Shown here: positions 1 through 52,460 of the stretch, in pieces
Layout of the letters: every line of letters begins with the position of its first letter
How positions within the stretch are numbered: the first letter of the stretch is position 1
DNA from: Chiloscyllium plagiosum
Lineage: Eukaryota
Length of the DNA stretch: 64,000 nucleotides
Assembly (NCBI RefSeq): GCF_004010195.1
Contig: NC_057732.1
Location: forward strand, 33,682,584 to 33,746,583
Direction: 5' to 3'
The notes under the pieces: generated by a model
Databases searched by the model: none
Seen by the model: the letters and a program-made list of their open reading frames with translations, nothing else
Told to the model about the DNA's origin: nothing
Position numbers and translations under genes: made by a program

Positions 1-327
1 GTTGATTTTAACCCTACTGTGAATCCTCTTGCAAGGATGCCTGCCTTGAAGAAGTTTTCCTCCTCTCTCTACAAGAATCTCAGGGAGTCCCCACCTTCAT
101 CTCCTCTCCCACTCACCTATTGTACTCTATGCTACTTTCTCCCCACCCCCACCCTCCTCTAGCTTATCTCTCCACGCTTCAGGCTCTCTGCCTTTATTCC
201 TGATGAAGGGCTTTTGCCCGAAACGTCGATTTTGCTGCTCGTCGGATGCTGCCTGAATTGCTGTGCTCTTCCAGCATCACTGATCCAGCATCTGGTTTCC
301 AGCATCTGCAGTCATTGTTTTTACCTC
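1..327 (+). mobile_element. Penelope-like element fragment (family A): partial tandem with pLTR
   Basis: The pLTR motif cctgatgaagggcttttgcccgaaacgtcgat...gatgctgcctga...ccagcatctgcagtc recurs at 10091-10190(-), 24590-24728 and 52330-52460, where it flanks GIY-YIG PLE ORFs or stands alone. Window start gttgattttaac also follows the pLTR end at 24720. Confidence 0.7.
197..230 (+). ncRNA. Minimal type I hammerhead ribozyme motif (family A)
   Basis: uuc-CUGAUGA-A-GGGC UUUU GCCC-GAAAC GUC|gau: intact core, 4-bp stem II, palindromic ACGU helix III, GUC cleavage triplet. Confidence 0.7.
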
Positions 328-527
328 ATAGTGTTAGGTGCATTAGTCAGAGGGAAATGGGTCTGGGTGGGTTACTCTACGGAGGGTCAGTGTGGACTGG
401 TTGGGCCGATCTGGTTTCCAGCATCTGCAGTCATTGTTTTTACCTCATAGTGTTAGGTGCATTAGTCAGAGGGAAATGGGTCTGGGTGGGTTACTCTACG
501 GAGGGTCAGTGTGGACTGGTTGGGCCG
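290..527 (+). repeat. Perfect 119-bp tandem duplication spanning a PLE/SINE junction
   Basis: 290-408 and 409-527 appear identical by eye. Confidence 0.9.
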
Positions 528-560
528 AAGGGCCTGTTTCCACACTGTAGGGAATCCAGT
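447..560 (+). mobile_element. HE1-like SINE 3' half
   Basis: atagtgttaggtgcattagtcag...gttgggccgaagggcctgtttccacactgtagggaatc matches the 3' part of the SINE copies at 11163 and 7405. Confidence 0.75.
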
Positions 561-1399
561 CAAACTAGAAAGGTGTTTCTAGTAATGAAGTTTAAATAGT
601 TAAGACTTAAACTAAAAAGCAGAAACTTCAAAGTAATTGTCTCTGGATTACTACCTGAGCCAGAAGAATACTGATACAAGGTAAATTGTTGAGGACACTA
701 TTTTTCTTTCACTATTCTCATTTTTGGTTTGGAACAGTAACCTTTCTTTAAGAAAAAAAGAGAATGGAACGACAGACACAGGTCTGCAATTGGGAAATGG
801 CCTAGGAAAGATGATGTAGGATAATTGCTGCTCTAAGAACAACATAAATGAATCAGACTGGTTTTAGATCTCTCAAGTTATTTTCCAGTTTTCAGTTTCT
901 TGGAAGTTCTGAGAAAAGAATCCTAGTCAGTAAGAAATAAATAAGTCTCCAGAAGTCTATGGAAGCTGTTTGTTTTGACTGATGACTATGGAATTCAAGA
1001 TATACAGTCTACAAAATTCATCATCCAAGAATTTCATGAAGGCCTGATATTCATTGTTGAAATAGTTCATCAAACTGGGCAAATTACAGTTCTTTTATTT
1101 TCTTTTAATTTATACTTAAACGGTTATCAGTATATAAGTAGGATTTTATGAAGAAAGAGGATTGGGCTCCGATCATACATATTAATTAGATCGCCTTCTA
1201 GTTTCTATATTCTACTAAAGTTTCATTCTTAACACTAAATTGTTAATTTTTGTTTAAGCTGTAAACTTGTTGTCCAAGATCTGTTATTTGTTAAATCTGG
1301 TTAGGAACAATTGAGTAATTTTGAGGGTCAATGTATATTTTAATTTCACAGTGTGAATCCTGGGTTGGTGAGGCTGCTTTGGCTAGCTATCCCTGTGTC

Positions 1400-7819: not shown

Positions 7820-9225
7820 CAATTTTTTGAAGAGGTAACAAGTAGGTTAGACCAGGGAAACCCAACGGATGTTACCTATCTAGACTTCCAAAAGGCCTTT
7901 GATAAGGTGCCTCATGGGAGGCTGCTGAGTAGGCTGAGGGCCCATGGTGTTGGAAGTGAATTACTGGCACGGATTGGGGATTGGCTGTCTGACAGTTGGG
8001 ATAAAAAGCTCTTTTTTGAAATGGCAGCTGGTGACAAGTGGTGTCCTGCAGGGTTCAGTGTTGGGGCTGCAGCTGTTCACATTATATATTAATTATCTGG
8101 ATGAGGGGACTGGGGACATTCTGGCGAAGTTCACCGATGATACGAAGTTAGGCGGATAGGCAGGTAGTTCTGAGGAGGTGGGGAGGCTGCACAATATTTT
8201 AGACAGTTTAGGAGAGTGGTCCAGGAAATGGCTGATGAAATTCAAGGTGAGCAATTGCAAGGTCTTGCACTTTGTAAAAAAGAATACAGGCATGGACTAT
8301 TTTTTAAATGATGAGAAAATTCATAAAGCCAAAGTATAAAGGGATCTGGGAGTGCTGATCCAAGGTTCTCTAAAGGTTGATTTGCAGGTTGAGTCCGTGA
8401 TTAAGAAAGCAAATGTAATGTTGTCATTTATCTCAAGAGAGTTGGAATATAAAAACAGCGATGTGTTTCTGAGACTTTATAAAGCTCTAGTTAGCCCCCA
8501 TTTAGAATACTGTGTCCAATTTTGGGCCAAAGTGAGGACTGCAGATGCTGGAGATCAGAACTGAAAATGTGTTGCTGGAAAAGCACAGCAGGTCAGGCAG
8601 CATCCAAGGAACAGGAGAGGGCTTATGCCCGAAACGTCGATTCTCCTGTTCCTTGGATGCTGCTTGACCTGCTGTGCTTTTCCAGCAACACATTTTCAGT
8701 TCCAATTTTGGGCCCCACACCTGAGGAAGGACATACTGGCACTGGAGCTTGTTCAGTGGAGATTCACACGAGTGACCCCTGGAATGGTAGGCCTAACATA
8801 TGATGATCGGCTGAGGATCTTGGGATTGTATTCACTGGAGTTTAGAAGGTTGAGGGGAAATCTAATAGAAACTTACAAGATAATGCATGGCTTAGAAAGG
8901 GTGGACACTGGGAAGTTGTTTCCATTAGGCGGGGAGACTAGGACCAGTGGGCACAGCCTTAAAATTAGAGGGGGTCAGTTTAGAACAGAAAAGAGGAGAC
9001 ATTTCTTCAGCCAGAGTGGTAAGCCTGTGGAATTCATTGCCATGGAGCGCAGTGGAGGCCGGGACGTTGGGTGTCTTCGAGGCTGAGATTGATAAATTCT
9101 TGATCTCGCAATTAAGGTCTACGGGGAGAGGGAGGTTAACTGGAATTAAAACGTCCATCAGCCATGATTAAATTGCGGAGTGGACTCAATGGGCCGAATG
9201 GCTTTGCTTTCATTCCTATGTCTTA
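7820..9225 (+). mobile_element. 5'-truncated CR1 LINE (RT to 3' end)
   Basis: [46 protein letters not shown] and LGLYSLEFRRLRGNLIETYKI. Confidence 0.9.
8529..8700. mobile_element. Fold-back PLE pLTR insertion (family A) with 14-bp TSD
   Basis: TSD tccaattttgggcc at 8515-8528 and 8701-8714. Inverted arms aactgaaaatgtgttgctggaaaagcacagcagg... and ...cctgctgtgcttttccagcaacacattttcagtt. Confidence 0.88.
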
Positions 9226-10090: not shown

Positions 10091-11592
10091 GAGTCTAGAT
10101 TAGAGTGGTGCTGGGAAAGCACAGCAGGTCAGGCAGCATCCGAGCAGCAGGAAAATCAACATTTCAGGCAAAAGCCCTTCATCAGGAATGAAGGCAGCGA
10201 GCTTTCAGGGTGGGAGATAAATGGGAGGAGGGTGGGGCTGGGGAGAAGGTAGCTAAGAGTACAATAGGTGGATGGAGGTGGGATGAAGGTGATAGGTCAG
10301 AGAGTAGGGTGGAGCAGATAGGTGGGCAGGGAGATTGGCAGGTAGGACCGGTCATGAGGATGGTGCTGAGCTGGAAGATTGGAACTGGAGTAAGGTGGGG
10401 GGAAGGGAAATAAGAAAACATTGATGCCCTGGGGTGGAAGTGTTCCAAGGTGGAAGATGAGGCGTTCTTCTTCCAGGCGTCGGGTGGTGAAGGAGTGGCG
10501 GTGGAGGAGGCCCAGGACCTGCATGTACTTGGCAGAGTGGGAGGGGGACTTGAAATGTTGGGCCACAGGGCGGTGTGGTTGATTGGTGCGGGTGTCCCGG
10601 AGATGTTCCCTAAAGCGCTCTGCGAGGAGGCGTCCAGTCTCCCCAATGTAGAGGAGACCGCATCGGGAGCAACGGATGCAATAAATGACATTGGTGGACG
10701 TGCAGGCAAAACTTTGATGGATGTGGAAGACTCCTTTGGGGCCTTGGATGGAGGTGAGTGGGGAGGTGTGGGCGCAAGTTTTGCAATTCCTGCAGTGGCA
10801 GGGGGAGGTGCCAGGATGGGAGAGTGGGTTGTTGGGGGGTGTGGACCTAACCAGGTAGTCACCGAGGGAACGATCTTTGCGGAAAGTGGAAAGGGGTGGG
10901 AAGGGAAATATATCCCTGGTGGTGGGGTCCGTTTGGAGGTGACAGAAACGTCGGCGGATGATGTGGTTATGCGGAGGTTGGTAGGGTGGAAGGTGAGGAC
11001 CAGGGAGTGCTGTCCTTGTTACGGTTGGAGGGGTGGGGTTTGAGGGCAGAGGTGCGGGACGTGGATGAGATGCACTGGAGGGCATCTTCAACCACGTGGG
11101 AAGGGAAATTGCAGTCTTTAAAGAAAGAGGCCATCTGGTGTGATCTATGGTGGAGAAGATATGGGCGGCATGGTGGCACAGTGGTTAGCACTGCTGCCTC
11201 ACAGCGCCTGGAGACCAGGGTTCAATTCCCGCCTCAGGCGACTGACTGTGTGGAGTTTGCACGTTCTCCCCGTGTCTGCGTGGGTTTCCTCTGGGTGCTC
11301 CGGTTTCCTCCCACAGTCCAAAGATGTGCAGGTCAGGTGAATTGGCCATGCTAAACTGCCTGTAGTGTTAGGTAAGGGGTAAATGTAGGGGTATGGGTGG
11401 GTTGCGCTTCGGCGGGTCGGTATGGACTTGTTGGGCCGAAGGGCCTGTTTCCACACTGTAATGTAATCTAATCTAATAAGGATCTCCTGGGAGCAGATAC
11501 AGCGGAGGTGGAGGAATTGGGAATACGGAATGGCATTTTTGCAGGAGGTAGGGTGGGAAGGGGTGTAATCCAGGTAGCTGTGGGAGTCGGAT
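10091..11592 (-). mobile_element. Penelope-like element (RT thumb + GIY-YIG endonuclease + pLTR), 5'-truncated and frameshifted
   Basis: SHSYLDYTPSHPTSCKNAIPYSQF; CHCRNCKTCAH; NVIYCIRCSRCGLLYIGETGRLLAERFREHLR; RRLEEERLIFHLGTLPPQGIN. Hammerhead motif at 10155-10189(-). Confidence 0.9.
11163..11477 (+). mobile_element. Full-length HE1-like (V-SINE type) tRNA-derived SINE nested in the PLE
   Basis: A-box tggcacagtgg (11174-11184), B-box ggttcaattccc (11219-11230), CR1-like 3' tail and (taatc)n end. It interrupts the PLE ORF. Confidence 0.9.
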
Positions 11593-12438: not shown

Positions 12439-12441
<3 letters not shown>

Positions 12442-12469: not shown

Positions 12470-12475
<6 letters not shown>

Positions 12476-13280: not shown

Positions 13281-13644
13281 CACACTGGCAAAAAGTGGAC
13301 TCTGCTATAGTGTGCACCCCATGAATTCCACCATTGACAATCTGGCTTCAGGTAGAATAGCTGATCCCTGAAGTATTCTGCATATGGAGCCTAACACTGA
13401 ATGTTCATCACTAGAATGACTTTTTTTTTAAAAAAAAAAGCCTCGTGGAAGTGTAAACATATGGTCAAAGAAGTCCCAAAGTATCTTCACATTAGGTTCA
13501 AATGTTAAGTGCTCCTATTCCAAGTTGAGACACTTGAGAAAGTCCCAAATGCTTGAAGACTGCTAATTCAATTTCATCACACAGTATATGAAATCTTACT
13601 TAAAAACATACAAATAATACCTTTAGGACAGTAAACATATCTAC

Positions 13645-14751
13645 CTTGCCCAACCCAGGACAATTGTGCGAACCATCAGATTTGTACGGATTATAAATGA
13701 TTTCCTCATTATCTTTTTTCCCGTTGTTACTATAGCAGATTTCTCTATATTCTTCAATCTTTTCATTTATCTGCTTCAAGGAGAACATGCAGAAAGCAGA
13801 CTTATCAGATGAGGTTGTTTTTAGGTTACCTCTGTTAAACACAGCAAAGAGTATTTTATCCCGTGGAGTTACAGTCCCATATAAACCTGATCTGTTCATA
13901 TGCTGAGCAAGTTTTTCTCCAGGATGATTAATGTAAGCAGCCTGCACAAGATTACAATCATCACATTCCAAGACCATTTCAATGTAAGAATAATAAGAAG
14001 CATCAGAAATGCAAAGCCGTGATATGTAAGTTGTAGGTTCTTGTTGCGATCCATCCGTTCGAGAGAAAAGGAAATAAACAAACCCCCCATCTTCAAAAGA
14101 AAATTTAAAATCATGTCGATATTGTAGATGAGAAACTGGTTTCAAAGCTGAAGAATCTTGAACAAGCTCAAAAAGGTGGCCCTTTTCAGAGAGTGTTCTG
14201 GTGCTTACTATTGCATTTGCAAATGTTTCAAAGTGTTTCCCAACAAACATTACTGGCTTGAGTTCATTTCTTGTGTCATTCATGAGAGTTATAAGGCCCA
14301 CAGTTGATTGATTACTTGCAACAAAAGTGGCTTCTCCACCATTCACATTTTCATATTTGATTACACTGATGTCATTCAGCTGCCTTATTGAGCATATTCC
14401 TTTAAATATATTTCCACATATTACAAGTCTTTCTCTATCTTTGTCTATTAAAAGGAGTTTATTGTAATTTTGAGTTAGTACTGTGTTTGAGCAAGTTGAA
14501 GGCTTTATTGGTGGCACACACTTTGGATTATCTTGTTTTGGACCAGTGTTTGCTTTCTTTTCCTCTTGGAGGTCTGATGTTAGTTGATAGAGGTAATTCA
14601 CTGCCCCAACATACACTTGCTCAGTGGTATCATCAATGGCCAAATGCAGTAGGTTTGTGGTGCTGGTAAATTCATTATATCCATCAACTCCAGGTTTAAA
14701 GCTCACATAAAAGGCTGTGAGTGCACAGAACATCCAAGTCCAAGGTGACAT
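13645..14751 (-). CDS. PLXNB2: Plexin-B2-like, first coding exon (signal peptide + N-terminal Sema domain, 369 codons)
   Basis: Translation MSPWTWMFCALTAFYVSF...LLHLAIDDTTEQVYVGAVNYLYQL...TGPKQDNPKCVPP...NKLLLID...CGNIFKGIC...FVASN...FVGK...IVSTR...FEDGGFVYFLF...RLCISDASYYSYIEMVLEC matches the plexin-B Sema domain from memory. FKGIC, IVSTR and FEDG point to B2 rather than B1. Acceptor tttttgcag| (exon starts 14764), ATG at 14751, donor AAG|gtagat at 13645, phase 0. The 442-aa track ORF overruns both splice sites. Confidence 0.9.
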
Positions 14752-15514
14752 TTCCAAAACCAAACTGCAAAAACACAAAAGATTTATTATAAATGAATTG
14801 TTGAGTGCATCTAATAAAACAAAACTTAACACAGTGATCATGGCCTTATTTTGAAGCGCTACATAAAAATAAACATAACCATCAATTATCTCAGCTCCTG
14901 AAGCCCACTCATTCCCAAACATTATCATCCTGAGCTATTTACATTAAATACTTCTTGCCCCAAATGATTACATGTAAAACAGCAAAGTACTTCGTATAAA
15001 GACAATTTCAACATTCTGACTTACATCTACACTGGTTCTTAACACAATCTTCCAAATGCAATCACAAACAGTCTACACAAGGTAAATGTAAATTACTTCA
15101 ATTTATAACCTAATGACTTTGCAGTTTACTTTCTCTAACCTCTTTCCAATGATTTTAGCAATGTTTTAAAATCATTTGTTAACCTCTCATTTGCTTTGCT
15201 TTTTCCTTATTTATTAGTGTTTTGATGCTCTTTTGATGAATTCTGTAATCCTCCCAATCCTCAGGTTTACTACTCTTTTTGGCAATTTTAATAAATCTCA
15301 TTCTCAGCTGTAATGTAATCTTAACCTCCTATCTATTCACAATTTCACCTTTTTTGCGAGTTTTTGCTCCTCAAATGAATGTACAATAATGTTGCATATT
15401 ATGTGTTAATTTTGTGTTAAGTATGTTAATAAACCCTTTTTCATTTCTTCATACTAGATTGAGATTATCCTGATCTCTATTTGGTTCTTCAAAATACTGA
15501 GATAGAAAATTAAA

Positions 15515-15710
15515 AGAAGACAAAGAACTGTGGATGCTGGAGATATGAAACAAAGACAGAAATTGCAGGAGAAACTCATCAGTCTATCTCTATTTGCAGA
15601 GAGAAAATAGAACCTGTTCAGTTCTCAAGAGTCGTCACTGGACTCAAAACGTAAACCAGATGTTGCCAGACCTGTTAAATTTTCCCAGCAATTTTTGATT
15701 TGTTTGTTTT
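15515..15710. mobile_element. Degraded fold-back pLTR-like element (family D)
   Basis: Inverted arms aaacaaagacagaaattgcaggagaaact and tttcccagcaatttttgatttgtttg; decayed hammerhead agttctcaagagtcgtcactggactcaaaacgtaaac. Confidence 0.55.
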
Positions 15711-19958: not shown

Positions 19959-20977
19959 TGCCGGTTTTGGACTGGGGTGTACAAAGTTAAAAATCACACA
20001 ACACCAGGTTATAGTCCAACAGGTTTAATTGTAAGCACTAGCTTTCGAAGCACTGGTCCTTCATCAGGGGATTGTTGAGTACACGATTGGAAGACAGAAT
20101 TCATAGCAAAAGTTTACAATGTGATGTAGCTGAAATTATACGTTGAAAAAGACCTTGGTTGCTTGTTAAGTCTCTCATCTGTTAGAATGACTATGTTAAT
20201 TTCACTTCTTTCATACGTAAATCACAAAACCTTTTTAAAAAGTTACATTCTCAAGTGAACTTTAACAATTGGTGTCAGCCCACTGGTGTCAATTTTGCTA
20301 TAAATTCTGTGTCTTACAATCGCGTACTCCACAACCACCTGATGAAGGAGCAGCGCTCCGAAAGCTACTGCTTCCAATTAAACCTGTTGGACTATAACCT
20401 AGTCATAGAGTCATAGAGATGTACAGCATGGAAACAGACCCTTCGGTCCAACAATGTCACACAGAATCATGGATTAGGATTTCTTCAGATGGTGAGGTTT
20501 CCTGTCCCGCCACCTCCAGGGTCATTGGGGAGCACATCTCTGCCATTACTGGCTACCTATGGCCATTAAACATTGCAAGGAACATTAATTGGCTGGAGAT
20601 GAGACTTCTGCCCCTTCCCTTGAGAGAGGAAGTCCTATATCAGAGAGCTATTGGAAAGTCGAATTGGCTGACAGTTCTCTAGCCCAAGCAGCTCTAAAAG
20701 CTTAGTGAATGGGGCTGGGGCAACAAGCATCTCCCAGAGTCGAGGGCCAGGTGATTATTGGGGTTTTGGGTTGGAAAGGAGAGAGCATGCCGACCAGATA
20801 TCCCAACCCAATCTAGTCTCACTTGCCAGTACCCAGCCCACATCCTTCTAAACCCTTCCTATTCATATACCCATCCAAATGCCTCTTAATGTTGCAATTG
20901 TACCAGCCTCCATCACATCCTTTTGGCAGCTCATTCCATACACGTACCACCCTCTGTGTTGTGTGATTTTTATCTTT
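19959..20977. mobile_element. Fold-back element (family B) with two opposed hammerhead motifs, interrupted by a CR1 3' fragment
   Basis: Arms match 33806-34030. Hammerheads at 20036-20070(-) and 20336-20370(+). The right arm breaks at ggactataacct (20400) and resumes tgttgtgtgattttt at about 20957. Confidence 0.8.
20401..20957 (-). mobile_element. Short CR1 (HER1-like) 3' end carrying a ~340-bp foreign insert
   Basis: agtcatagagtcatagagatgtacagcatggaaacagacccttcggtccaac | insert | atgccgaccagatatcccaacc...cacgtaccaccctctg. Confidence 0.85.
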
Positions 20978-21691
20978 CTGTGCTGTAAAGTTACATGGGC
21001 TGAATTTACTCTCCCACCCCACTGCAAGATTGCATGTGGTGGTGGTTAGAATGAAGCAAAAACTTTTTTGGATAGCCTTCCCATCCATTCAGATCTCTCT
21101 GCAATTTTACAGTGGCATGGACATGACCTAGGCCTGACTGCCCTTGCTCCAACTATGGCCCTTAAGTAGTTTTTCCTGACCAGTTTCAACTTTCAGACAG
21201 TTGGGAGAAGTGTAGCAGCAGAATGAGGGGGGGAAGGAGGAAGTGGTGGGGAGCTCAGAGAGTTACTCTTCTCAGGACCAGGTGTGAAAATACAAGCCTT
21301 TACCAATGGTTTCTTGTGACCACCTTGGGTGCAGGATCTGCACAGCCATGAGTGCTCCCTCCCTTCCAATCCAAAACCCCAATAATCACCTGGCCCTCGA
21401 CTCTGGGAGATGCTTGTTGCCCCAGCCCCATTCACTAAGCTTTTAGAGCTGCTGGGGCTAGAGAACTGTCAGCCAATTCGACTTTCCAATAGCTCTCTGA
21501 TATAGGACTTCCTCTCTCAAGGGAAGGGGCAAGAGTCTCATGTCCAGCCAATTAATGTTCCTTGCAATGTTTAATGGCCATAGGCAGCCAGTAATGGCAG
21601 AGATGTGCTCCCCAATGATCCTGGAGGTGGCGGGACAGGAAACCTCACCATCTGAAGAAATCCTAATCCATGATTCTGTGCGACATTGTTG
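20449..21691. repeat. Inverted repeat with ~340-bp arms (20449-20787 and 21353-21691)
   Basis: caacaatgtcacacagaatcatggattagg...gagagca is the reverse complement of tgctccct...catgattctgtgcgacattgttg with few mismatches. Confidence 0.92.
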
Positions 21692-24589: not shown

Positions 24590-24728
24590 TTACTGATTCC
24601 TGATGAAGTTCTTTTGTCCAAAACGTTGATTCTTTTGCTCCTTAGATGCTGCCTGACCTGCTGTGCTTTTCCAGCACCACACTCTCAACTCCAGCATCTG
24701 CAGTCCTCACTTTTGCCTAGTTGATTTT
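24590..24728 (+). mobile_element. Solo pLTR (family A) with 12-bp TSD
   Basis: TSD aacaccagatta at 24578-24589 and 24729-24740. Begins near attcctgatgaag (decayed hammerhead). Confidence 0.8.
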
Positions 24729-28354: not shown

Positions 28355-28482
28355 AGATAGTGAGAACTACAGATGCTGGAGAGTCAGAGTGGATAAAGAG
28401 TTGAGCTGGAAAAAGCACAGCAAGTCAAGCATCAGAGGACAGGAGTCGTTCACATTTCAGGTTAGAACCTTTCATCAGGGCA
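28355..28482 (-). mobile_element. Solo pLTR (family A-related) with hammerhead-like core
   Basis: Reverse complement reads cCTGATGAaaggttctaacctGAAAtgtgaa followed by gatgcttgacttgctgtgc...ccagc. Confidence 0.6.
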
Positions 28483-29354: not shown

Positions 29355-30335
29355 TCAGGCAGGAGGCTAGAAGAATACAGCAGGCCAAGCAGCATCAGGA
29401 GGTGGAGAAGTGTAACCCTTCTTCAGGACTGGAGGTGGGTGTGGAGGTAGCTGCAGATAAAGGGGGTGGCGGGGGCAGGCTGGTGAAGTGGGATAGGTGA
29501 AGACAGGTAGAGGGTACGACCTGTTTGGTCTACAGGAGGAATGGATCCAGTTGATGGCGGGGAAGACTGGAAGGGAGGGGGAGGGGCTGGGAAGGGATGT
29601 TATTTGAAACTGGAGAACTCAATGGCGAGTCCTTCGGGCTGTAGGGTGCCCAGGCGGAAGATGAGATGTTGTTCCTTCAATTTGTGGTGTGGTTCATTGT
29701 GGCAATTGACCGGGAGGTCCAGTTGGCCCCTGTATGCCCAGCTGCGATGCTCAGTGAACCATTCCCTAAGTTTATGTTCGGTGTAGAGAAGACCACATCG
29801 GGAGCACCTGAAGCAGTAAACTAGGTTGGAAGAGAGGCAGGTGAACCTCTGTTTTAGGGCCTGGATGGACGTGAGGGGTTGGTGTACCATCTGGTTTTGC
29901 ATCTTTTTCAGTTGCAGGGGAAGGTACCAAGGGGTTTGGTTGGGAGAGTGGCGCAAATCAAGGACTGTTGAAGGGAACAGTCCTTGTGGAAGGCAGAGAG
30001 GAGTGGGGAGGGGAAGATGCTATTGGTGGTGGGGTCTAGTTGGAGATGGCAGAAGTGTTTAAGGAAGATGCGTTGGTTGCAGAGACCAGTGAGGTGGTAG
30101 GTAAGGACAAGGGGTATCGGTCTTTATTGGGTGGGGGGAGGAGTTTAGAGTAGTGGAATGGGGAATGGAGGTGGTGTGGTGGAAGGCTGTCTGGATGACA
30201 AAGGGAGGAAAAGCATGTTGTTTGAAATAGGTGGACATAAGCGGAATGTCGCCTCGTCCGAGCAGATGTGGCTGAGGCGGAGGAATTGGGACAATGGGAT
30301 GGAGTTCTTGATGGGTGGGCGGGGGTGGGGTAGTG
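29355..30335 (-). mobile_element. Degraded Penelope-like element (GIY-YIG region)
   Basis: FTCLSSNLVYCFRCSRCGLLY...LIFRLGTLQPEGLAIEFS. Confidence 0.85.
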
Positions 30336-30379
30336 GAGCACCATATAACTGTTTATTGTATTCCTCTGTACCTATTTAC

Positions 30380-31860
30380 AGTCATAGAGTCATAGAGATG
30401 TACAGCATGGAAACAGATCCTTCAGTCCAATCCGTCCATTCCAATCATATATCCCAACCCAATCTAGTCCCACCTGCTATCACACGGCCCATATCCCTCC
30501 AAACCCTTCCTATTCATATACACATCCAAATGCCTCTTAAATGTTGCAATTGTACCAGCCTCCACCACATCCTCTGGCAGCTCATTCCATACACGTACCA
30601 CCCTCTGCGTGAAAAAGTTGCCCCTTAGGTCTCTTTTATATCTTTCCCCTCTCATCCTAGACCTATGCCCTCTCTGACTCTCTGACCCCAGGGAAAAGAC
30701 TTGGTCTATTTATTCTATCTATGCCCCTCATAATTTTGTAAACCTCTATAAGGTCACCCCTCAGCCTTCGATGCTCCAGAGAAAACAGCTCCAGCCTGTT
30801 CTGCCTCTCCCTGTAGCTCAGATCCTCCAACCCTGGCAACATCCTTGTAAATCTTTTCTGAACCCTTTCAAGTTTCACAACATCTTTCCGATAGGAAGGA
30901 GACCAGATTTGCACACAATATTCCAACAGTGGCCTAACCAATGTCCTGTACAGCCGCAACATGACCTCCCAACTCCTGTACTCAATACTCTGACCAATAA
31001 AGGAAAGCATACCAAACACTGCCTTCATTATCCTATCTACCTNNNNNNNNNNNNNNNNNNNNNNNNNNNNNNNNNNNNNNNNNNNNNNNNNNNNNNNNNN
31101 NNNNNNNNNNNNNNNNNNNNNNNNNNNNNNNNNNNNNNNNNNNNNNNNNNNNNNNNNNNNNNNNNNNNNNNNNNNNNNNNNNNNNNNNNNNNNNNNNNNN
31201 NNNNNNNNNNNNNNNNNNNNNNNNNNNNNNNNNNNNNNNNNNNNNNNNNNNNNNNNNNNNNNNNNNNNNNNNNNNNNNNNNNNNNNNNNNNNNNNNNNNN
31301 NNNNNNNNNNNNNNNNNNNNNNNNNNNNNNNNNNNNNNNNNNNNNNNNNNNNNNNNNNNNNNNNNNNNNNNNNNNNNNNNNNNNNNNNNNNNNNNNNNNN
31401 NNNNNNNNNNNNNNNNNNNNNNNNNNNCTTGCTGATCTTTGAGGGGCCCTATTCTCTCCCTAGTTACCCTTTTGTCCTTAATATATTTGTAAAAACCCTT
31501 TGGATTCTCCTTAATTCTATTTGCCAAAGCTATCTCATGTCCCCGTTTTGCCCTCCTGATTTCCCTCTTAAGTATACTCCTACTTTCTTTATACTCTTCT
31601 AAGGATTCACTCGATCTATCCTGTCTATACCTGACATATGCTTCCTTCTTTTTCTTAACCAAACCCTCAATTTCTTTAGTCATCCAACATTCCCTATACC
31701 TACCAGCCTTCCCTTTCACCCTGACAGGAATATACTTTCTCTGGATTCTTGCTATCTCATTTCTGAAGGCTTCCCACTTTCCAGCCGTCCCTTTACCTGC
31801 GAACATCTGCCCACAATCAGCTTTTGAAAGTTCTTGCCTTTCTCCAATTTAGAACTTCAA
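30380..31860 (-). mobile_element. Young CR1 LINE fragment spanning an assembly gap
   Basis: IKENPKGFYKYIKDKRVTRERIGPLKDQQ and RTLVRPLLEYCVQIWSPSYRKDV; (ctctatga) tail at 30380-30400. Confidence 0.9.
31043..31427. other. Assembly gap (385 N)
   Basis: Run of N. Confidence 1.
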
Positions 31861-33042: not shown

Positions 33043-33898
33043 GATGGCATGCTACTGTCAGTTTCTTTGTGTAGCAGGAACCAATGCCTTTCTGTCTGGG
33101 CTGTCCTTTGTTTCGTGGGTAAGCTGCTGGAGGAGTTTGTGCAGGATAACTGACACCTTTTGTACTATGCTAATGTCATTAGTACCTGGCTGCTGTATTT
33201 GCACTATGTCTGCTGTGTGGGTTTAGTGATTTCAGAGTTTCACTTGGCCAATGTACCCAGCATCCTTTGCTGTTTGGCCAAGTTAGCAATCTGTGTATTC
33301 ACAGCCAGGAGGTTGCTACATCTGTCTTCACTTAGAAACTTTGACAACTTTTTTTTTGTGTGGTGAAAGCAGTGGGTGGGGTTGTGAGGGAGAGGAAGTG
33401 CAGAGGAATAAATGCTAGGAGAAATCGGATTTAAATGATACTGCCAGAACCAAGAAATTTACTTATGACTTCTGGCAGCCCCTCAGTACATTTCATCCCA
33501 TTTTAACAATCCTTACGGTAATGTGGAGCATGCAAAATTTTGAAGTCCACATTCCTTCACTGATAATTAAAACATTGCCTGAAAAATGTCTAAGTGATAT
33601 TTGTTTTCTTTCAATTTGGTGTGTTCTTAACAATATATTCATACCGTTCAAGATTTCAATAATTTGAAGGAGTGGTTTCAAAAATTGCGAGTAACCCTTT
33701 GGCAGTAAAGCATCCAGACAGCACGACATCACATCACATAGTGATCTCTGACACATGTGGGACATTTCAGTAATAGGATTTTTATTAGTACAATATTCCA
33801 AGTAGTCATGATTTGGAGATGCTGTTGTTGGACTGGGGTGTACAAAGTTAAAAATCACACAACACCAGGTTATAGTCCAACAGGTTTAATTGGAAGCA

Positions 33899-33933
33899 CA
33901 CTAGCTTTCGGAGCAATGCTCCTTCATCAGGTG
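33899..33933 (-). ncRNA. Minimal hammerhead ribozyme motif (family B), sense to the plexin strand
   Basis: Reverse complement reads cac-CUGAUGA-A-GGAGC AUU GCUCC-GAAAG CUA|gug. Confidence 0.78.
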
Positions 33934-33939
33934 ATCTAT

Positions 33940-33974
33940 CACCTGATGAAGGAGCGTTGCTCCGAAAGCTAGTG
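33940..33974 (+). ncRNA. Minimal hammerhead ribozyme motif (family B)
   Basis: cac-CUGAUGA-A-GGAGC GUU GCUCC-GAAAG CUA|gug; helix I cac/gug, helix III AGCU palindrome. Confidence 0.78.
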
Positions 33975-34229
33975 TGCTTCCAATTAAACCTGTTGGACTA
34001 TAACCTGGTGTTGTGTGATTTTTAACTTCTTATTCCAAGTAGATTGCATGGAATCAGACTCAGTGAAAAAATATAGCAGAATCCCCAGGTATAGGGCAGC
34101 TACTTTCTATTTTGCCTGTTCAAGATTTCAGCGTTCATGGAAAGTTGAGTGTATTTCTTTCGTTAAATTACAAATACCAAGTTTCTGAGAAACAATGAAA
34201 AGGTTTGTGTCCCAGCCTTATACTTTATA

Positions 34230-35227: not shown

Positions 35228-35444
35228 GAGTTGAAAAGTGTGGTGCTGGAAAAACACAGCAGGCCAGGCAGCATCCGAAGAGCAGGAGAATCAACGTTTC
35301 GGGCATAAGCCCACTTTCAGGAATCGGGCTTATGCCCAAAACATCGATTCTCCTGCTCCTCAGATGCTGCCTGGCCTGCTGTGTTTTTCCAGCACCACAC
35401 TTTTCAACCCTGGTCTCCAGCATCTGCAGTCCTCACTTTCTCCT
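35228..35444. mobile_element. Fold-back pLTR insertion (family A) with 12-bp TSD
   Basis: TSD attcaattcaaa at 35216-35227 and 35445-35456; inverted arms of about 80 bp. Confidence 0.88.
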
Positions 35445-37254: not shown

Positions 37255-37382
37255 TGCATAAATAGAAAGCGGGCCATACCACCAGTGCTTCACCAGAGAC
37301 TCACTGATGATGTTACCTAGTCAAGGTGACAAAATGGCTGAAAACAAACCTTTCAGGTCAGCGAGCAAACTTACATCCAGAA
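37255..37382 (+). mobile_element. Solo terminal fragment of PLE family C with hammerhead core
   Basis: ataaatagaaagcggg...caCTGATGAtgttacctagtcaaggtgacaaaa...tcagcgagcaaac; matches 40265-40390. Confidence 0.65.
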
Positions 37383-37904
37383 GTAGAGTGTTTGAATGCT
37401 CCTTGGAGTATTTCTGCTCTTCCTGGCAGACAAGGAGTATACAAAGACCTATGACCACTTTCATAACCCAGAAGGCAACCAAGAAACCGAGTGACCAACT
37501 ATTAGTTTAAAAACAGGTTAGCAATTGTGGGAGCCTGATCTAAATATCATCACAAAGTGGTTCAAACCCCTTTGTCATAAAATGGCAAAGAATATGCATA
37601 TAACAGGTTGTAGATGCTTTTTAAACAATATATGCAAACGAGTTTAATCTCCCCACCAACGCGTCCAACACTAACCTCCTCACCACTTTTGGGTGTGACA
37701 AGCTTAATATCAACACCAACAAAATAACTGTGTAGGTGAGATGCAGTTTTTCGATGAGAAACTGGAGTTGGTGGGTAAACATAGATCATTGTCACTCGAT
37801 GGACAAAAGCACGACAGATCAAAGCATTTCCACTCAGCTGTACAACAGGATAAAGGCATTAAATGACGTAATTTACCAGACCATCCTAAAAGACTGAGAC
37901 ATGA

Positions 37905-38060
37905 ATTAAAAATCAGACAACACCATGTTATAGTACAACAGGTTTATTTGGAAACAGTAGCTTTCAAAGCTAGTGCTTCCAAATAAACCTTTGGACTATA
38001 ACTTAGTGCTGTGTGAATTTTAACTTTGTCCACCACAGTCCAACACTGGCTCCTCCACAA
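37905..38060. mobile_element. Family B fold-back element with central hammerhead cores deleted
   Basis: Arms meet at tagctttc|aaagctag. Confidence 0.7.
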
Positions 38061-39679
38061 CATGTATTGAGATTTGACTGGGATAATGGCCCCAAGGTCA
38101 TGCTCACACAGAGGACAATCACTAGCAAGTTTGATTCTCTGGACTAGTAATACAAAAAAAACCTTCATCATGGTTCGAGTTTCAGCCTCTGATCATTATC
38201 TCAACAGCTTTGCAGAAAGCAGGTAGATGGTAGATGAAGGCAGTATCAGATGTCTGTGACGAATCCTACTCACTCCAGGCTTACACACATTTGAAAAATG
38301 CCACTTTATCTAAGTGCAGGAGAGCCACTCCCAACTGTAGTGTATTGTGTACTGCAACACAAGGAATCACCTTCAGAAATGGTAAAGGGAAGGCAAGTGA
38401 GGAATTAAAAATACTTTTTGGCAAAGGTCTGCTCAGCTCTCAAAAATAATGCATATCATGGTGAAAATAATGACAATTTGTCCTTTTCCCTCCTCCAAAA
38501 GTATTAACAGTTGTGACTCCCAAATTATCCATAACCCACATTGCTTTATAAGCACTAATTCTGAATGCTGAACATGTCAACACTTGTATTCTGATTCAAC
38601 TCAGTCAGAGTGCATGGATTTAAACAAACATCTACTAACACCTTCAAGCGGAAATCTAATCTTTCATGGTGTCTACATTGAGAAACAGGTTATTCAACTG
38701 AGTTTAGTGGTCAAACTGAAGGGCAGCAACACATTTCAAAACCACAATGATACATTGTAAAATGAATAGCAAATTTACACACAATTTAATTGTGGCAAAA
38801 TCACTCAGATGTGCACAAGATTTGGGTGTCATAAATTTAACTGACCTATGTTTTGAACTCCTTTTTATTCAGCCAGTGCAACAATTATCAGATTTGATCA
38901 AACATTTGGGACTCATTTTATTGTGGTTCTAAATTCCAACTTTGTGCGTCATCAGGGTAGTTTCGGTAAGACAAGTCAAATCATGATTCTCTGGATAGCT
39001 AAGGACATATTCAACTCACACTATTTCGGTTAGTACTGTATAGGAGAAATTAGAATTCATAGCCCTAGGTGAATTTACTGCTTACCATCACTTGCAAAAA
39101 AAAGTCAGTAAAGATAATTTAGGATTTAACATATTCACTTTAGTTTTTAAAAATTCTATTTTGAAAGGGAATAACTGATTTTAAAAAATGAATAATATTC
39201 TAGTATTGTCACTCAACCAGTTACTTCAGGCTGCAGCATTCAAATATTAACTTTCGATTCCAAGGACATGCAACGACAATATTTAATTCACTATCAGCAG
39301 GGTGAGGTGCCCTCCAAATTGGGAAACTGAGGTATAAAAAAGTCTAATTAGAGTATTATATAAATTAAACCTATATTTTCATGCTAATGCAGGGGAGTAG
39401 CAGTTCTTAACCAACTGTTGCATTAAAACCCTAATTCTACCACTGATGTTATGTCAGAATATAATATACAGTATGCAGAAAATGGTACGCCATGACAATA
39501 TTTTGAATATTAAAATATTTTCTTTGCTAGAATTAAACAGTCAATAACTGGAGAGCCACTTTGATCATCAGGTTAAATGTTTCCAGTAAATAGCAATTCC
39601 ACAGAAACATAACACTCCAAGATACATCCCAGAGGAAGAATGAAGGGGTCAGCAAGTACTGCTGGGATATTGTAGAAGC

Positions 39680-40427
39680 TGTGGATGTAGGTTTGCTCGC
39701 TGAACTGCAAGGTTCATTTCCAGACGTTTCGTCACCCTACTAGGTAACATCTTGAGTGGGCCTCAGGTGAAGCACTGCTGGTAAGTCCTGCTATCTATGT
39801 ATATGTTTGGGTTGGTGATGTCATTTCCTGTGGTGATGTCATTTCCAGTTATTTTTCTCAGAGGCTGGTAGATGTGGTCTAACTCAATGTGCTTGTTGAT
39901 AGAGTTCCAGTTCGAAAGCCATGCTTCTAGGAATTCTCGTGCATGTCTCTGTTTGGTTTGTCCTAGGATGATTGTGCAAGGACTGTAACAAACACTACAT
40001 TGAACAAACAGGCAGAAAACTAGCCACCAGGATACATGAACACTAATTAGCCACAAAAAGACATGATCCTCTCTCACTAGTATCCTTACATACAGATGAG
40101 GAAGGATACCATTTTGATTTGGACAACCCAACAGAGGCACGCACGAGAATTCCTAGAAGCATGACATTCCAACCGGAACTCTAACAACAAATACATCGAG
40201 TTAGACCCTAAGAAAAAGAACAGGAAGTGATTTCACGACAGGAAATTACATCACCAACTCAAACATATAAATAGAAAGAAGGACTTATCAGCAGTGCTTC
40301 GCCCGGTGGCCCAACTAAGATGTTACTAGTAGGGTGACGATACGTCTGGAGATGAACCTTCCAGCTCAGCGAGCAAATCTATATCCAGAACCTAAATCTG
40401 AGCTACAAATCTTCTCAAAATTCACTA
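39680..40427. mobile_element. Tail-to-tail inverted PLE (family C) with 13-bp TSD
   Basis: TSD atattgtagaagc at 39667-39679 and 40428-40440. GIY-YIG C-terminal peptide HAREFLEAWLSNWNSINKHIELDHIY on the left arm with its homolog on the right. Hammerhead motifs at 39720-39759(-) and about 40308-40350(+). Confidence 0.85.
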
Positions 40428-40789: not shown

Positions 40790-41945
40790 CCACATAAATG
40801 CCAGGCAATGACCACCTCCATTAAAAGACAATCTAATCATCGTCCCTCAACATTTAATGGCATTACCTCACTCTCAATATCCTCAGAGTTACCATTAATT
40901 TGAAACTAAGAGTATTCGAGAAGATTTATAGCTCAGGTTGTGGATGAGCTTGTTGACATGCTTGCTGAGCTGATTATTTGCAGAGATTGCATCACCATTC
41001 TAGGTAACATCATCAGTGCGCCTCCAGTGAAGCGCTGGCATTCTGTCCCATTTGCTATTTCCGGTTTTGTTGCTGGTTCCGTTTCTTAGTGGTTGGTATA
41101 TCGGGCATGGGAATTCCTGGAAGCCTGGACATCTATTAACAGACGTGTAGAGTTGGACCCCATATATCAAACAATAAGAAACAGAACCAGCAACAAAACC
41201 AGAAATGACACCACCAATCCCAGCAGACCCAGGCACATAAATAGCAAGTGGGATAGAACACCAACACTTCACCAGAGGCGCATTGATGGTGTTACATAGA
41301 ATAGTGACGAAACATCTGCAAACAAACTTACCAGCTTAGCGAGCAAGTCAACAACCTCATTAGAAACTAAACTGGACAAGCCATATAAATACAGTGACTA
41401 CAATAGCAGGTCAGAGGGTAGGAATACTGCAGATGTGACTTCCCAAAGTATGTCTGCCATCTACAAGGCATAAATCAGGTATGAGATAGAATATTCCCCA
41501 CTTGCCTGGATGGGTGCAGCTCCAGCAACACTCAAAAAGCTTGACACCATCCAGGACAAAACAGCCTATTTCATTATTTGTGGATGTGATGCCATTTACT
41601 CCCATCACCACCAGTAACACTGTATACTATCTACAGATGTACTGCAGAAATAAACCAAGAGGTAGCAAATTTGTTATCACTTACCACTTAGAAAGAAGAG
41701 CACCAGATACAATGGGAACACCACCAACTACAAGTTTCCATCCTGACTTAAATACATTGCTTTTCTTTCAGTATCACTGGGTCAAGATCCTGGAATTCCC
41801 TCCCTAATGGCATTGTGGATTTCCCCATAGCACGTAGACTCAGCAGTTTATGAAGGCAGCTCATCACCATCTTCTCAAGAGCAACTAGGGATGGGCACAA
41901 AACACTGAACCAGCCAGTAACAGCGACGACTCAAAAGCGAATTTT
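40790..41945 (+). mobile_element. Old CR1/L2-type LINE 3' fragment, interrupted
   Basis: YKA.IR..IEYSPLAWMGAAPA.LKKLDTIQDK motif at 41460-41560; 3' tail gcaactagggatgggca. Confidence 0.7.
40910..41362. mobile_element. Fold-back PLE family C insertion
   Basis: gaaactaa duplicated at 40902-40909 and 41363-41370; WEFLEAWTSINRRVELDPIY; hammerhead remnants near 40985-41020(-) and 41277-41320(+). Confidence 0.75.
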
Positions 41946-42589: not shown

Positions 42590-42690
42590 ACAAGAACTGA
42601 AATTGCTGTAAAGTCTCAGCAGATCTGGCAGCATCTGTGGAGAGAAATCAGAGTTAACTTTTCGGATCCAGTGACCCTTCTTCAGAACTG
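42590..42690 (-). mobile_element. Solo pLTR-like element (family D) with hammerhead motif at 42652-42689
   Basis: Reverse complement reads aguu-CUGAAGA-A-GGGUC ACUG GAUCC-GAAAA GUU|aacu. Confidence 0.7.
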
Positions 42691-47500: not shown

Positions 47501-47987
47501 GAATGTTCTGAATGATGAATGGAATAGATGGATTCAAGCTGTGTGCTAAAGAATTAACAGCTGTTCAGAGTGAAATTACGCAGGAAAGCATTCACTGTGA
47601 ACAGCCTTCAGTGCCAGCAAAGAACCAACACAGATTCCTGCACCATTAGTCAAAGTTGAAAATAACAATTACCTACACATTAAATCAGCATTGTCTCTGG
47701 CCCATTGAACCTAGTGGTACAAACATGCAACAGGGAATAAGAAAATCAATGATAGTCCCTTATATCTCCCCAAATATCAAAGGATTGCCTTCAGACCAAA
47801 AATAGGGCAGTTAGAAGTAGATGTCTCTGGTTGTTGCAATCTATCAATTATCTTAAGCTCATGGTGATGTAGAATTGCCACATCTCACTAAAGTAAGCAC
47901 ATTGGAATTTAATGCAAAAGAATTAAAACTTTATGCAAAGTCCCCAATCTCCTGTCAGGCTAACAGACATCATGGACCAGGTTTCTG

Positions 47988-48558: not shown

Positions 48559-48662
48559 TAATTACTATTCATTACAAATAAACAGAACCTAGCTACAGGT
48601 AAATAATTATGAACTGCTGACATGTAATTCCACCAATTAAACTTGAACTCCATCTAAACCTC

Positions 48663-48664
<2 letters not shown>

Positions 48665-48693
<29 letters not shown>
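48665..48693. repeat. (AT)n microsatellite
   Basis: Direct reading. Confidence 0.95.
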
Positions 48694-48699
<6 letters not shown>

Positions 48700-49974
48700 C
48701 AGATAGGCAAAAAAAATTGATGTTTTGGGTGGAAGGGGAAAAAACCAGGAAAGGAATTCAATAGCGGCAATCCACAGGGTCAACTGAGATTATCGACTTG
48801 CTTGCTGGGACTGGTTGTACTTTGAATATTTTTAGCTGTTTACAGGAGGCACAGACAATTGGTACATTAATTACAGCATTATATTACATACATTACAGCA
48901 ACTGGTGAGGAAAACAAACTGGCTTTCTTCAGGCTTTATGTAGTTTATGAGAGAAATACAAACTAGTTGCCCTTCCAGTGGTTAGAAACATTCAGAGTCA
49001 CTCACACACACAAGGTGTTCAACAAGCCAAGAACCATCCACGTGGTTATTCATAAAAAAGTGGCCTTTGTCATCCACAGGTGGTCATAACTCCAATCAGC
49101 AACTTGTTACTGATTTTAAACACACCCTGGTACCAGTCCATTTGCAAACAGCCTCCCCTATTGGTTAAATAAAGCAGCATTGTAAATTTACAATGAGCGC
49201 CAGTTACTTGCTTTTAAAAAATACAGCAATCCATTCCACAATCCTTTGTTTTAAAATAGTTCTTTTTCCATTTCAGCCCATCATCAAAACTACAGAAAAA
49301 TGAAAGATCTGGTCTTCAGAGTGATTAATCTGCTCATCATTTCTGGCATTCAGCTCTTGTTGCTTTCTTCTCAATACTTATACGGATGGCTGGCAGTGAG
49401 CGTAAGCCTCACGCTGTCAGAACGTAAGCTTGATATCAGCAACTCCTTCTCAACTCTTATGGAGGCAACATATGTAAACTGGGTACTCACCAGTTCCACA
49501 TTAAACTATAGGGAATCTGGGGAAGATCTCACCTCCATGTATGTGGCTACTGGCATGCAGCTCTACCCCACTGGCCATGAACCTGATGCCCAGCTACAAG
49601 TAAAGAGCCTTAATGTCTTATAGGGGTCTTGATAGACAAGGCAGTTAAGGGAATAAACCCCACAGAAAATCCAAAGCTGAGTCCCATAAGCAATCAGGTT
49701 CCTTTCATCACCAGAAAGTAAAATTTTAAACCTTGCCTTTCCTTTGGACAATATTAGCAGTGCTGGCCACCTACCTCAGGCTGGACAACTTCAATTAGTT
49801 TAAAGTTAGGTACTGTCCTGCCATAGACTGCTTGCTTTATTGGATTTTTGGAACTTACAGCGTTATCTCTGAACAAGCAGATTGATCATCTAGTACCAGG
49901 CAAGACAAGCACAACAAAGAAGACACCAGACTTGCACATTGTAAGATGGAATACAAGAATTTTTTGCTTTCATT

Positions 49975-50651
49975 TAGAGTCAAAGAGTCATAGAGATGTA
50001 CAGCTTGGAAACAGACCCTTCAGTCCAACCTGTCCATGCCGACCAGATATCCCAACCCAAACTAGTCCCACCTGCCAGCACCCGGCCCATATCCCTCCAA
50101 ACCCTTCCTATTCATATACCCATCCAAATGCCTCTGAAATGCAATTGTACCAGTCTCCACCACATCTTCTGGCAGCTCATTCCATACACGTACTACCCTC
50201 TGCGTGAAAAAGTTGTCCATTAGGTCTCTTTTATATCTTTCCCCTCTCACCCGAAACCTATGCCCTCTAGTTCTGGACTCCCCAACCCCAGGGAAAAGAC
50301 TTTGTCTATTTATCCTATCCATGCCCCTCATAATTTTGTAAACCTCTATAAGGTCACCCCTCAGCCTCCAACGCTCCAGGGAAAACAGCCCCTGCCTGTT
50401 CATTCTCTTCCTGTAGCTCAAATCCTCCAATCCTGGCAACACCCTTGTAACATCTTTTCTGAACCCTTTCAAATTTCACAACATCTTTCCGATAGGAAAG
50501 AGACCAGAATTGCACGCAATATTCCAACAGTGGCCTAACCAATGTCCTGTACAGCTACAACATGACCTCCCAACTCCTGTACTCAATACTCTGACCAATA
50601 AAGGAAAGCATACCAAACACCTTCTTTACTATCCTATCTACCTGCGACTCC
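49975..50651 (-). mobile_element. CR1 3' fragment
   Basis: LRGDLIEVYKIMRGMDRINRQSLFPGVGESRTRGH; agagtca tail. Confidence 0.9.
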
Positions 50652-51239
50652 AATTTGTATCAGATCACATATTATTCCAGCAACGTTTATTTGGGCAGTG
50701 CTACCCAACCGGGCATGAGCTAATTGAAATGCATATCCTGATAATGAAAACTTTAAAATCAAAGGTCATATTGAATTTGAATGGTTAACTGTTTCCCTCT
50801 TACAGATTTGCCAAACCCAAGTTCCTCCAAAGCTTTTGTTTCAGATTTCCAGCACTCGCTGTGTTCTCCAATGGTTTTAATTAAACCTTTTAAATGGAAA
50901 TAATCTGTAGATAATCTTGAACATTTCAACTGATGGGCCATGACTATTTCCTTTGGCAGTTTAATTGTTCAACGTGACATTGTCCTTGGGAAGAAAGATT
51001 GCTGATGCATTACCTTGGAAACAAATGGTCTTTGTAGTTTGTCTTGATGACTGAATTGTGTTTTATCATGACATAGGGAACCAATTACTCATTTCTGTCA
51101 ACTTCCACCAATCCATTCCACATTTTGTAGAACGTAGTCCAACTATTTGCTTTCTTGCTTTGCTGTAGTGATTTCCATTCCAATCTTTTATCAAGGATAG
51201 AACACCTCTCAGTGATTTGTGCAGAACAGTGAAGTGCTA

Positions 51240-52460
51240 GCTCCCACCCCTTCCTGGGCCTCTCCACCCCCATCAACGGTGACCAACTCAACATGGACAT
51301 CTTCCACAAACCCACCAACTCCCACAGCTACCTGGACTACACCTCTTCCCACCCTGCCTTCTGTAAAAACACTATCCTTTATTCCCAAGTCCTCTGCCTC
51401 CGCTGCATCTGCTCCCAGGAGGACCAATTCCACCACAGAACACCCCAGATGGCCTCCTTCTTCAAAGACTGCAATTTCCCCTCCCACGTGGTCAATTATG
51501 CCCTCCAGCGCATCTCATCCACTTCCCGCATCTCCGCCTTCAAACCCATCCCTTCAACCACAATAAAGGACAGAACCATCCGGTCCTCACCTTCCACCCC
51601 ACCAACCTCCAGATACATCGTATCATCCTTCGCCATTTCCACCATCTACAAACAGACTCCACCACCAGAGATATATTTCCCTCCCCATCCTTATCTGTGT
51701 TCCATAAAAACAATTCCCTCTGCGACTCTTATCAGGTACATGCCCCCCCACCAAACCATCCTCCCCTCACATCACAAGGATTGCATAACCTGTGCCCAAA
51801 CCTCCCCCCTCACCTCCATCCAAGGCCCCAAAAGAGCCTTCTACATCCATCAGAGATTTACCTGCACCTCCACTCTTCATTTACTGTATCCGTTGCTCCC
51901 AATGCGGTCTCCTCTACACTGGTGAGACAGGACACTACTCGCAGAACGCTTCAGAGAACATCTCCAGGACACGCTCACAAAGCAACCCCACCCCCCAGTG
52001 GCCAAACACTTTAACTCCCCCGCCCACTTCACCTAGGACATGCAGGTCCTCGGCCACCTCCATCATCAAGTCCTAGCCACCCAACGCCTTGAGGAAGAAC
52101 GCCCCATTTTCTGCCTTGGGACCCTCCCACCACATGGGATTAATGTGGATTTCACCAGTTTCCTCATTTCCCCTTCCCCCACTTTATCCTGGATCCAACC
52201 TTCCAACTCGGCACCGCCCTCTTGACCTGTCCATCTTCTATCACCCTCACCTTAACCTCCTTCCCCCTAACGCATTTCCAACACCTCTCCTCCCTACCTT
52301 TTATCTTTGCCTGCTTGGCGCACTTTCCTCATTCCTGAAGAAGAGCTCATACCGAAACATTGATTCTCCTGCTCCTCCGATGCTGCCTGACCAGCTGTGC
52401 TTTTCCAGCACCACACTCATGATTCTGATCTACAGCATCCGCAGTCCTCACTTTCTTCTA
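51240..52460 (+). mobile_element. Penelope-like element (family A), 5'-truncated and frameshifted
   Basis: DIFHKPTNSHSYLDYTSSHP; IYCIRCSQCGLLYTGETG; RLEEERPIFCLGTLPPHGINVDF; pLTR with CUGAAGA...GAAAC at 52335-52358. Confidence 0.9.

Follow-up and report, generated by a model that had tools for sequence, protein, structure and literature searches.

The question raised by a 64,000-nucleotide (nt) stretch of Chiloscyllium plagiosum contig NC_057732.1 (positions 33,682,584 to 33,746,583; here called the window) is what its many hammerhead-like motifs belong to and how their copies arose. An initial annotation named 16 hammerhead positions (the listed sites), sorted them into four sequence-distinct families (A to D) with covarying helices, and attributed them to at least four Penelope-like element (PLE) or retrozyme-like lineages. 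The reading favored here, with a probability of roughly 85%, is that the motifs are minimal type I hammerheads in the pseudo-long terminal repeats (pLTRs) of three endonuclease-bearing PLE lineages and that the window copies are dead, mostly 5′-truncated by-products of retrotransposition in neutral decay. Copies tend to begin at the apparent RNA start, not at the predicted cut site, and many of them preserve the start and end points of the copied RNA.

A strict descriptor (CUGANGA, helix II of at least 4 pairs, GAAA, paired 15.2/16.2, NUH, and helix I of at least 2 pairs) produced 21 matches in 534,619 bases from 55 loci taken at round coordinates, compared to 0 in each of 10 shuffles. Across 100 dinucleotide shuffles of the window, the mean was 0.01 match, with a maximum of 1. 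Because descriptor matches so exceeded those in shuffled sequence, the frequency of the hammerhead motif is far above chance. Exact motif counts over the 3.56-Gb assembly were 17,044 for family A, 15,860 for B, 646 for C, and 134 for D, with 0 for reversed controls; a looser family A pattern gave 57,837 matches. A recognizable copy was present at, or a few bases from, each of the 16 listed sites. The motifs claimed for A to D are thus abundant genome-wide, but only 4 of the 16 listed copies (200+, 10185−, 33930−, and 33943+) were accepted by the strict descriptor. Missing from the initial annotation were a degraded D-like copy around position 2900 and fold-backs around 8620, 35300, and 37960. 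The Rfam scan proposed with that annotation returned no hammerhead family up to E = 10, either for the whole window or for positions 170 to 270 alone; Rfam matches on the fold-backs were weak and microRNA-like only.

The core CUGANGA, GAAA, and NUH were present in the majority sequences of A, B, and D and, for C, in the exact motif. An extra base lies between positions 9 and 10.1 (A in families A, B, and D; U in C), the first helix II pair (G10.1-C11.1) was formed in 94 to 96% of A, B, and D copies, and 15.2/16.2 is palindromic without loop III (CG in A, C, and D; GC in B). Helix II spans 4 to 5 bp in A, B, and D and 7 to 8 bp in C. Helix I has 3 bp in B and C, 4 in D, and 2 bp plus U-U plus 1 in A, where the third pair (U-U) was paired in 17% of 90 copies. 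The core, extra base, G10.1-C11.1 pair, palindromic 15.2/16.2, and missing loop III are shared with the minimal hammerheads described, in the available text, from pLTRs of metazoan PLEs, including Xena, Poseidon, and Neptune of fish (Cervera and De la Pena 2014, PMC4209133), as are the presence of multiple families in a genome, a preponderance of solo copies, and nearby pairs on opposite strands. More than 33,000 exact matches here compare, by different search methods, to some 4,000 for coelacanth and 9,000 for Xenopus there, and no shark name was found in the part of the supplement searched. Literature searches on Penelope/Neptune hammerheads in sharks and on ribozymes in cartilaginous fish returned nothing. 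By themselves, the motifs carry little weight; they add a high-copy cartilaginous-fish-like genome to a class known since 2014.

The window copies are mostly worn-out minimal type I hammerheads of this known kind. On inspection, the core or GAAA was broken in all five window C copies; the family C motif drawn from the window was a composite with no intact core there, although it matches the 646 intact copies elsewhere. The D copy at 42685 was without C15.2. By analogy with the literature, a ribozyme lacking a stable helix III would probably cut only as a dimer or with the element's protein. In the portions of the sources available, no cleavage was reported for a monomer and little for dimers (PMC4209133), and cleavage was reported in one of nine Xenopus dimers (Li et al. 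2026, 10.64898/2026.07.22.740005). When two copies were cofolded, the active dimer hammerhead was not the minimum-energy structure, a fold that nearest-neighbor folding does not model. Further hammerhead subfamilies outside A to D, with other helix II, loop, or NUH variants, were observed at L024:274-304, L121:3606, L094:521, and L126:1381.

Each family could be tied to a PLE reading frame, in agreement with the pLTR identity proposed initially. Family A motifs were found behind GIY-YIG frames with a CX2-5CxxC linker (window positions 10297 to 11184; locus L023), and the linker was also present in the family B frame at L029, with the last cysteine lost in that copy. At L025, two B motifs occurred as direct repeats flanking a broken PLE reverse transcriptase (RT) frame, with an ATG at the tail's far end. 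Such a linker between RT and a GIY-YIG domain at the C terminus marks the Neptune clade according to the portion of PMC8557442 seen. Family D motifs were located behind A-like frames, 34 to 39% identical to A frames and on the 3′ side only, in two of six D loci tested (L071 and L080); no PLE frame match was found at L059, L067, or L083, and the match at L078 was far from the motif. Family C was accompanied by RT and GIY-YIG remnants without the linker (L084 and L085), and 19 of 25 C copies could be read as open from an AUG located within the core. Pfam gave no match for two of the three locus frames and a subthreshold RT match for the third.

Families A and D aligned over 100 nt, with an invariant downstream block and a mean column identity of 68%. 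Because A and D are homologous, sequence comparison assigns the motifs to three PLE lineages (Neptune-type A/D, Neptune-type B, and Poseidon-type C), and neither the four sequence-distinct families nor the four independent lineages of the initial annotation could be retained. Its retrozyme-like lineages likewise found no counterpart, as none of the seven tandem repeats in the window held a motif and no tandem hammerhead array was present. Animal non-LTR retrozymes, which are reported in one chondrichthyan, resemble the present copies in their type I hammerheads from PLE pLTRs but are defined, in the accessible text, as tandem repeats with a hammerhead per unit (10.64898/2026.07.22.740005). Two identical family D motifs occurred on the same strand 2,369 nt apart at L083 (2834 and 5203) with no PLE frame between them, possibly through captured host DNA or local duplication. 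Same-strand C pairs with intact cores, about 390 to 410 nt apart, were observed at L085:3545/3954 and L086:2302/2689; these are partial tandems in which a cis dimer would be possible.

The claim of covarying helices stands as a description, though not as a statistical result: across families, the helices differ yet keep pairing, and within families the changes are mostly CpG decay. Among copies fitting without gaps (90 A, 94 B, and 31 D; only 2 C), the commonest changes in A, B, and D were CpG losses. Between A and D, one pair was changed on both sides (C-G to U-A), a score reached by 34 of 500 shuffles. Helix I of family B showed one subfamily change, with C-G in 66 of 94 copies and U-A in 8.

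The ends of the copies were examined with positions numbered relative to the predicted cut site, +1 being the first base after the cut, and 5′ ends in the 55 loci and the window were mapped with anchors only from sequence 3′ of that site. Of 68 A copies, a late anchor excluded 6, and a low score or an N at the junction excluded 8. Among the 54 retained, 26 began at −36 to −29, a range that includes the 5′ strand of helix I (−32 to −29); none began in the next 24 nt upstream, 14 began farther upstream, 11 began inside the ribozyme, and 3 began no more than 4 nt from the cut. In family B (52 of 59 copies kept), 14 began at −40 to −33, 3 at the cut, and 12 were long copies extending past the 5′ edge. 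Five of the 11 D copies kept (from 20) began at −37 to −30, and in motif-selected loci 11 of 17 began at −37 to −32. Genome-wide, with the flank fixed as AA plus a purine, family A starts numbered 1,093 at −32, 36 at +1, and 25 at −16 (an arbitrary site), while the base patterns for these starts occurred 10, 10, and 6 times, respectively, in the 55 loci. Copy 3′ ends fell in two clusters, at about +55 and +90. In the available text of PMC4209133, copy 5′ ends were not mapped.

Separate nonautonomous short interspersed element (SINE)-like or retrozyme families that start with the hammerhead and are copied whole would likewise account for the high copy number, the short length, and the sharpness of the shared 5′ end. 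This origin is improbable, since short and long copies have the same loop and core variants, 3′ ends follow the two-site PLE tail, the window holds no tandem hammerhead arrays, and tandem flags were found for only 8 of 371 copies. A splice junction at helix I was ruled out, as no upstream exon is common to the short copies. The same palindromic junction at −37/−36 occurs in three head-to-head B pairs (G000:C1 near 2944402, 19156317, and 19332931), which suggests recurrent fold-back at the cDNA end.

TATA-like words were found about 30 nt upstream of the 5′-end peak in each of families A, B, and C. In tallies of copies related to each other, with words picked after the copies had been viewed, TATAAA occurred at −69 to −65 in 26 of 33 long B copies, TTATCT at −64 to −62 in 14 of 18 long A copies, and a TATA-like word at −86 to −79 in 20 of 32 C copies. 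The 5′-end peaks coincided with initiator-like words when compared to the initiator consensus. Reverse transcriptases add an extra G by copying the cap, a point on which literature searches returned no paper. The base before the A at −32 was G in 69 of 100 matches listed (hand count), compared to a genomic proportion of 0.38 (P = 3e-10). The excess was confined to the CUGAAGA subfamily (64 of 85; 5 of 15 in the CUGAUGA subfamily). A second list gave 63 of 100, or 37 of 61 after removal of 39 rows explained by an inverted partner, point mutation, or duplication. At two control sites, which are confounded by deletions and inversions, G preceded 31 of 61 starts, below the value at −32 (P = 0.03) and above background (P = 0.03).

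That enrichment at control sites is one argument for regarding the pile-up as a junction artifact, produced by an endonuclease or microhomology preference for ATT words, by polymerase stalling at folded RNA, or by alignments stopping where subfamilies diverge upstream. The Anolis enzyme does prefer 5′-ATT-3′ (PMC11167929, in the part seen), and subfamilies do differ upstream. However, ATT also occurs at +2 to +4 without a pile-up, as the +1 count shows; among 26 A copies whose inverted partner lies directly upstream, so that an unknown subfamily cannot be the cause, 13 begin at −36 to −29; and the peak tracks the TATA spacing, lying in family C 15 nt upstream of the ribozyme. An artifact is accordingly rated improbable.

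RNA evidence was drawn from one poly(A) single-cell run (X20), about 2% of which was read and which probably derives from a related species; 3,638 reads mapped to L029:2860-3500. The sense strand predominated by about 10:1 over the B ribozyme, and 270 and 324 reads continued as poly(A) after +29 and +32, respectively. A poly(A) signal (AATTAAA or AAATAAA) was present at +11 in 71 of 88 B copies, followed by a GU-rich stretch, and a genomic A run at the poly(A) position was found in 0 of 123; the B poly(A) reads could stem from a small number of host transcripts processed at the signal of a B copy. Family A reads showed little strand bias, and no poly(A) signal was seen near the ribozyme by inspection in A, C, or D. 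No read ended at the cut site, a weak test, as such a library would lose cut products. Loose read ends at place 3037 coincided with −32 but belonged partly to a subfamily with other upstream sequence and were not counted as support.

These data also bear on the model of PMC4209133, as given in its accessible portion, in which the ribozyme cuts and religates the element RNA and the circles serve as main template. Retention of the motif in all three lineages with changed helices agrees with such a role, and the long copies past the 5′ edge (14 of 54 in A and 12 of 52 in B) could have come from a circle. At the 5′ edge, however, a circle would have no end, yet nearly half of the A copies begin there with an excess of untemplated G, and reads of B RNA continue across the site to a poly(A) end. 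Circles as the main template are therefore considered unlikely, if slightly less so than the SINE-like and artifact explanations.

Several observations weigh against copying of RNA that starts at the ribozyme's 5′ edge in PLEs of the lineages named. The pile-up in B was broader, with 19 of 52 copies between the peak and −5; the D set was small, and a strict TATA match was found in only one of seven D upstream regions. All eight C copies of the unbiased set were long, and the C cluster (6 of 23 at −52 to −46) was drawn from motif-selected loci. No site with many read starts was found at the inferred start in X20, a weak test given that reads came from many loci. Clade names were taken from the linker motif described in the available part of PMC8557442 and not from a tree.

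Under the favored reading, the pLTR would act as an RNA polymerase II promoter starting a capped RNA within a few bases upstream of the ribozyme core. Reverse transcription would begin inside this RNA, at 55 or 90 nt beyond the cut site, which corresponds to the known PLE tail, and the cDNA would copy the uncut ribozyme and run off the RNA 5′ end, giving stubs of 90 to 130 nt and fold-backs. A comparable arrangement is described, in the portion available, for PAc, the Anolis Poseidon element, for which unprocessed RNA is the main insertion substrate in vitro and cleavage needs protein (Frangieh et al. 2024, PMC11167929). As in PAc, the family C open reading frame starts at stem II, two internal RT start sites would give the tail, uncut RNA would serve as the template, and no RNA reads ended at the cut site. 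In contrast, PAc cleavage was demonstrated in vitro with protein, whereas the present copies are known from sequence; A, B, and D are Neptune type, and in B the frame begins at the tail's far end. Penelope elements of Drosophila virilis and Adineta vaga (PMC2377424 and PMC3846280, seen in part) also have a transcription start inside the pLTR, with TATA and initiator-like motifs in the rotifer pLTR and head-to-head inverted copies with palindromic junctions. The fly promoter differs in having no TATA box and an intron whose end lies at helix I. The fossil ends speak for a template in which the ribozyme stays uncut; this bears on the role of PLE hammerheads and on PLE replication as discussed in the available portions of PMC8557442 and PMC11167929.

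Retroviral and LTR-retrotransposon long terminal repeats (LTRs) have the order U3-R-U5 and yield strong-stop DNA. Because of the TATA-like box, the excess of untemplated G, and the B poly(A) signal and reads, the pLTR data suggest a U3-R-U5-like unit with the uncut ribozyme in R. Family B follows the LTR order of TATA, start, poly(A) signal, poly(A) site, GU-rich stretch, and RT start sites. PLEs differ in having no tRNA primer site or integrase, priming from a GIY-YIG nick, and A, C, and D differ in lacking, on inspection, the poly(A) signal near the ribozyme. A tentative extension, more doubtful than probable, is that the pLTR acts as an LTR, with TATA-driven capped RNA from the hammerhead 5′ edge carrying the ribozyme in a terminally redundant R. 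In family B, a poly(A) site located 30 nt beyond the cut would close R; in the other three families, the ribozyme cut itself might do so. Strong-stop cDNA could integrate at once, giving tens of thousands of stubs, or jump through R to the RNA 3′ end and copy the element body. If true, this would account for the tail, for the partial tandems, and for the absence of poly(A) from PLE insertions; the ribozyme would then serve 3′-end formation and not the making of the template's 5′ end. The fossil ends make the strand-transfer model testable. An LTR-like R region with strand transfer was not found in the literature searched, although older PLE papers and preprint supplements may hold the 5′-end pattern. 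Nothing relevant was found on PLE strong-stop DNA or template jumping, and no pLTR poly(A) site was found described in the portions seen of the literature on Penelope pLTR polyadenylation.

Coordinates of the copies and associated frames in the window are listed in Table 1.

Table 1. Hammerhead copies, fold-backs, and PLE remnants in the window
Feature	Positions	Strand	Remarks
Family A minimal hammerhead, intact, with upstream pLTR sequence	196..231	+	Core from 200, predicted cut after 227
Family A fold-back pair without core	8550..8730	.	Absent from initial annotation
Family A hammerhead, core intact, helices II/III CpG-decayed	10154..10189	-	About 110 nt behind Neptune-type reading frame end
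Broken Neptune-type PLE frame: RT end, cysteine linker, GIY-YIG; short repeat interrupts	10297..11576	-	PF01541, E 7.5e-05
Decayed family D copy and remains of inverted partner	15560..15710	+	
Long family B copy, decayed helices	19950..20190	-	Inverted partner of copy at 20339
Family B copy, helix I broken	20295..20404	+	TATAAA 20299-20304, inferred start near 20331, core 20339
Decayed family A stub starting at ribozyme 5′ edge	24596..24700	+	
Decayed family A-like stub, NUH lost	28400..28479	-	
Broken Neptune-type frame	29606..30309	-	Deleted hammerhead-like remnant near 29420, same strand
Family B stub, intact hammerhead, core from 33930, long tail	33845..33935	-	Left arm of 99% head-to-head inverted pair
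Family B stub, intact hammerhead, right arm	33934..34028	+	Core 33943, predicted cut after 33971; ATTAAA 33983-33988
Family A fold-back pair, decayed	35230..35440	.	Absent from initial annotation
Family C copy, GAAA and NUH broken	37258..37383	+	
Family B fold-back without core	37900..38065	.	Absent from initial annotation
Family C copy, G5 lost, helices intact	39680..39860	-	
Poseidon-type GIY-YIG C-terminal remnants, both strands	39763..40152	.	Between head-to-head C copies
Family C copy, core and GAAA broken	40195..40420	+	
Family C copy, GAAA broken	40920..41065	-	
Family C copy, core broken	41235..41350	+	Inverted partner of copy near 41016
Family D stub starting at ribozyme 5′ edge; core intact, C15.2 lost	42590..42690	-	
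Broken Neptune-type PLE frame ahead of copy at 52335	51329..52232	+	
Decayed family A hammerhead, helix II broken	52331..52365	+	

Among these dense repeats, the window contains a large plexin-family coding exon (positions 13600 to 14934, minus strand) with a Sema domain, whose best solved relative was Plexin-B1 (E = 1e-42). Its presence, with the motifs at 33930− and 10185− on the same strand, could indicate that some copies acquired a host role as active ribozymes in regulation of the plexin-family gene. This is very improbable: 12 of the 16 listed copies fail the descriptor, folding of the intact head-to-head B pair would give a single 91-bp hairpin, there is no intact partner close by on the same strand, and decay is of the CpG type.

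An exact 119-nt tandem duplication at positions 290 to 528 comprises the tail of a family A copy together with a portion of a short repeat; its 100% identity suggests a recent event or an assembly artifact. A 339-nt inverted repeat (20449 to 20787 and 21353 to 21691; 97% complementary) lies in a long interspersed element (LINE)-like 3′ end adjoining the B copy at 20339. Long LINE-like remnants, presumably of the CR1 type, were observed at 30374 to 31836 and at 58976 to 61089, the latter with an RT domain match at 59480 to 60043 (PF00078).

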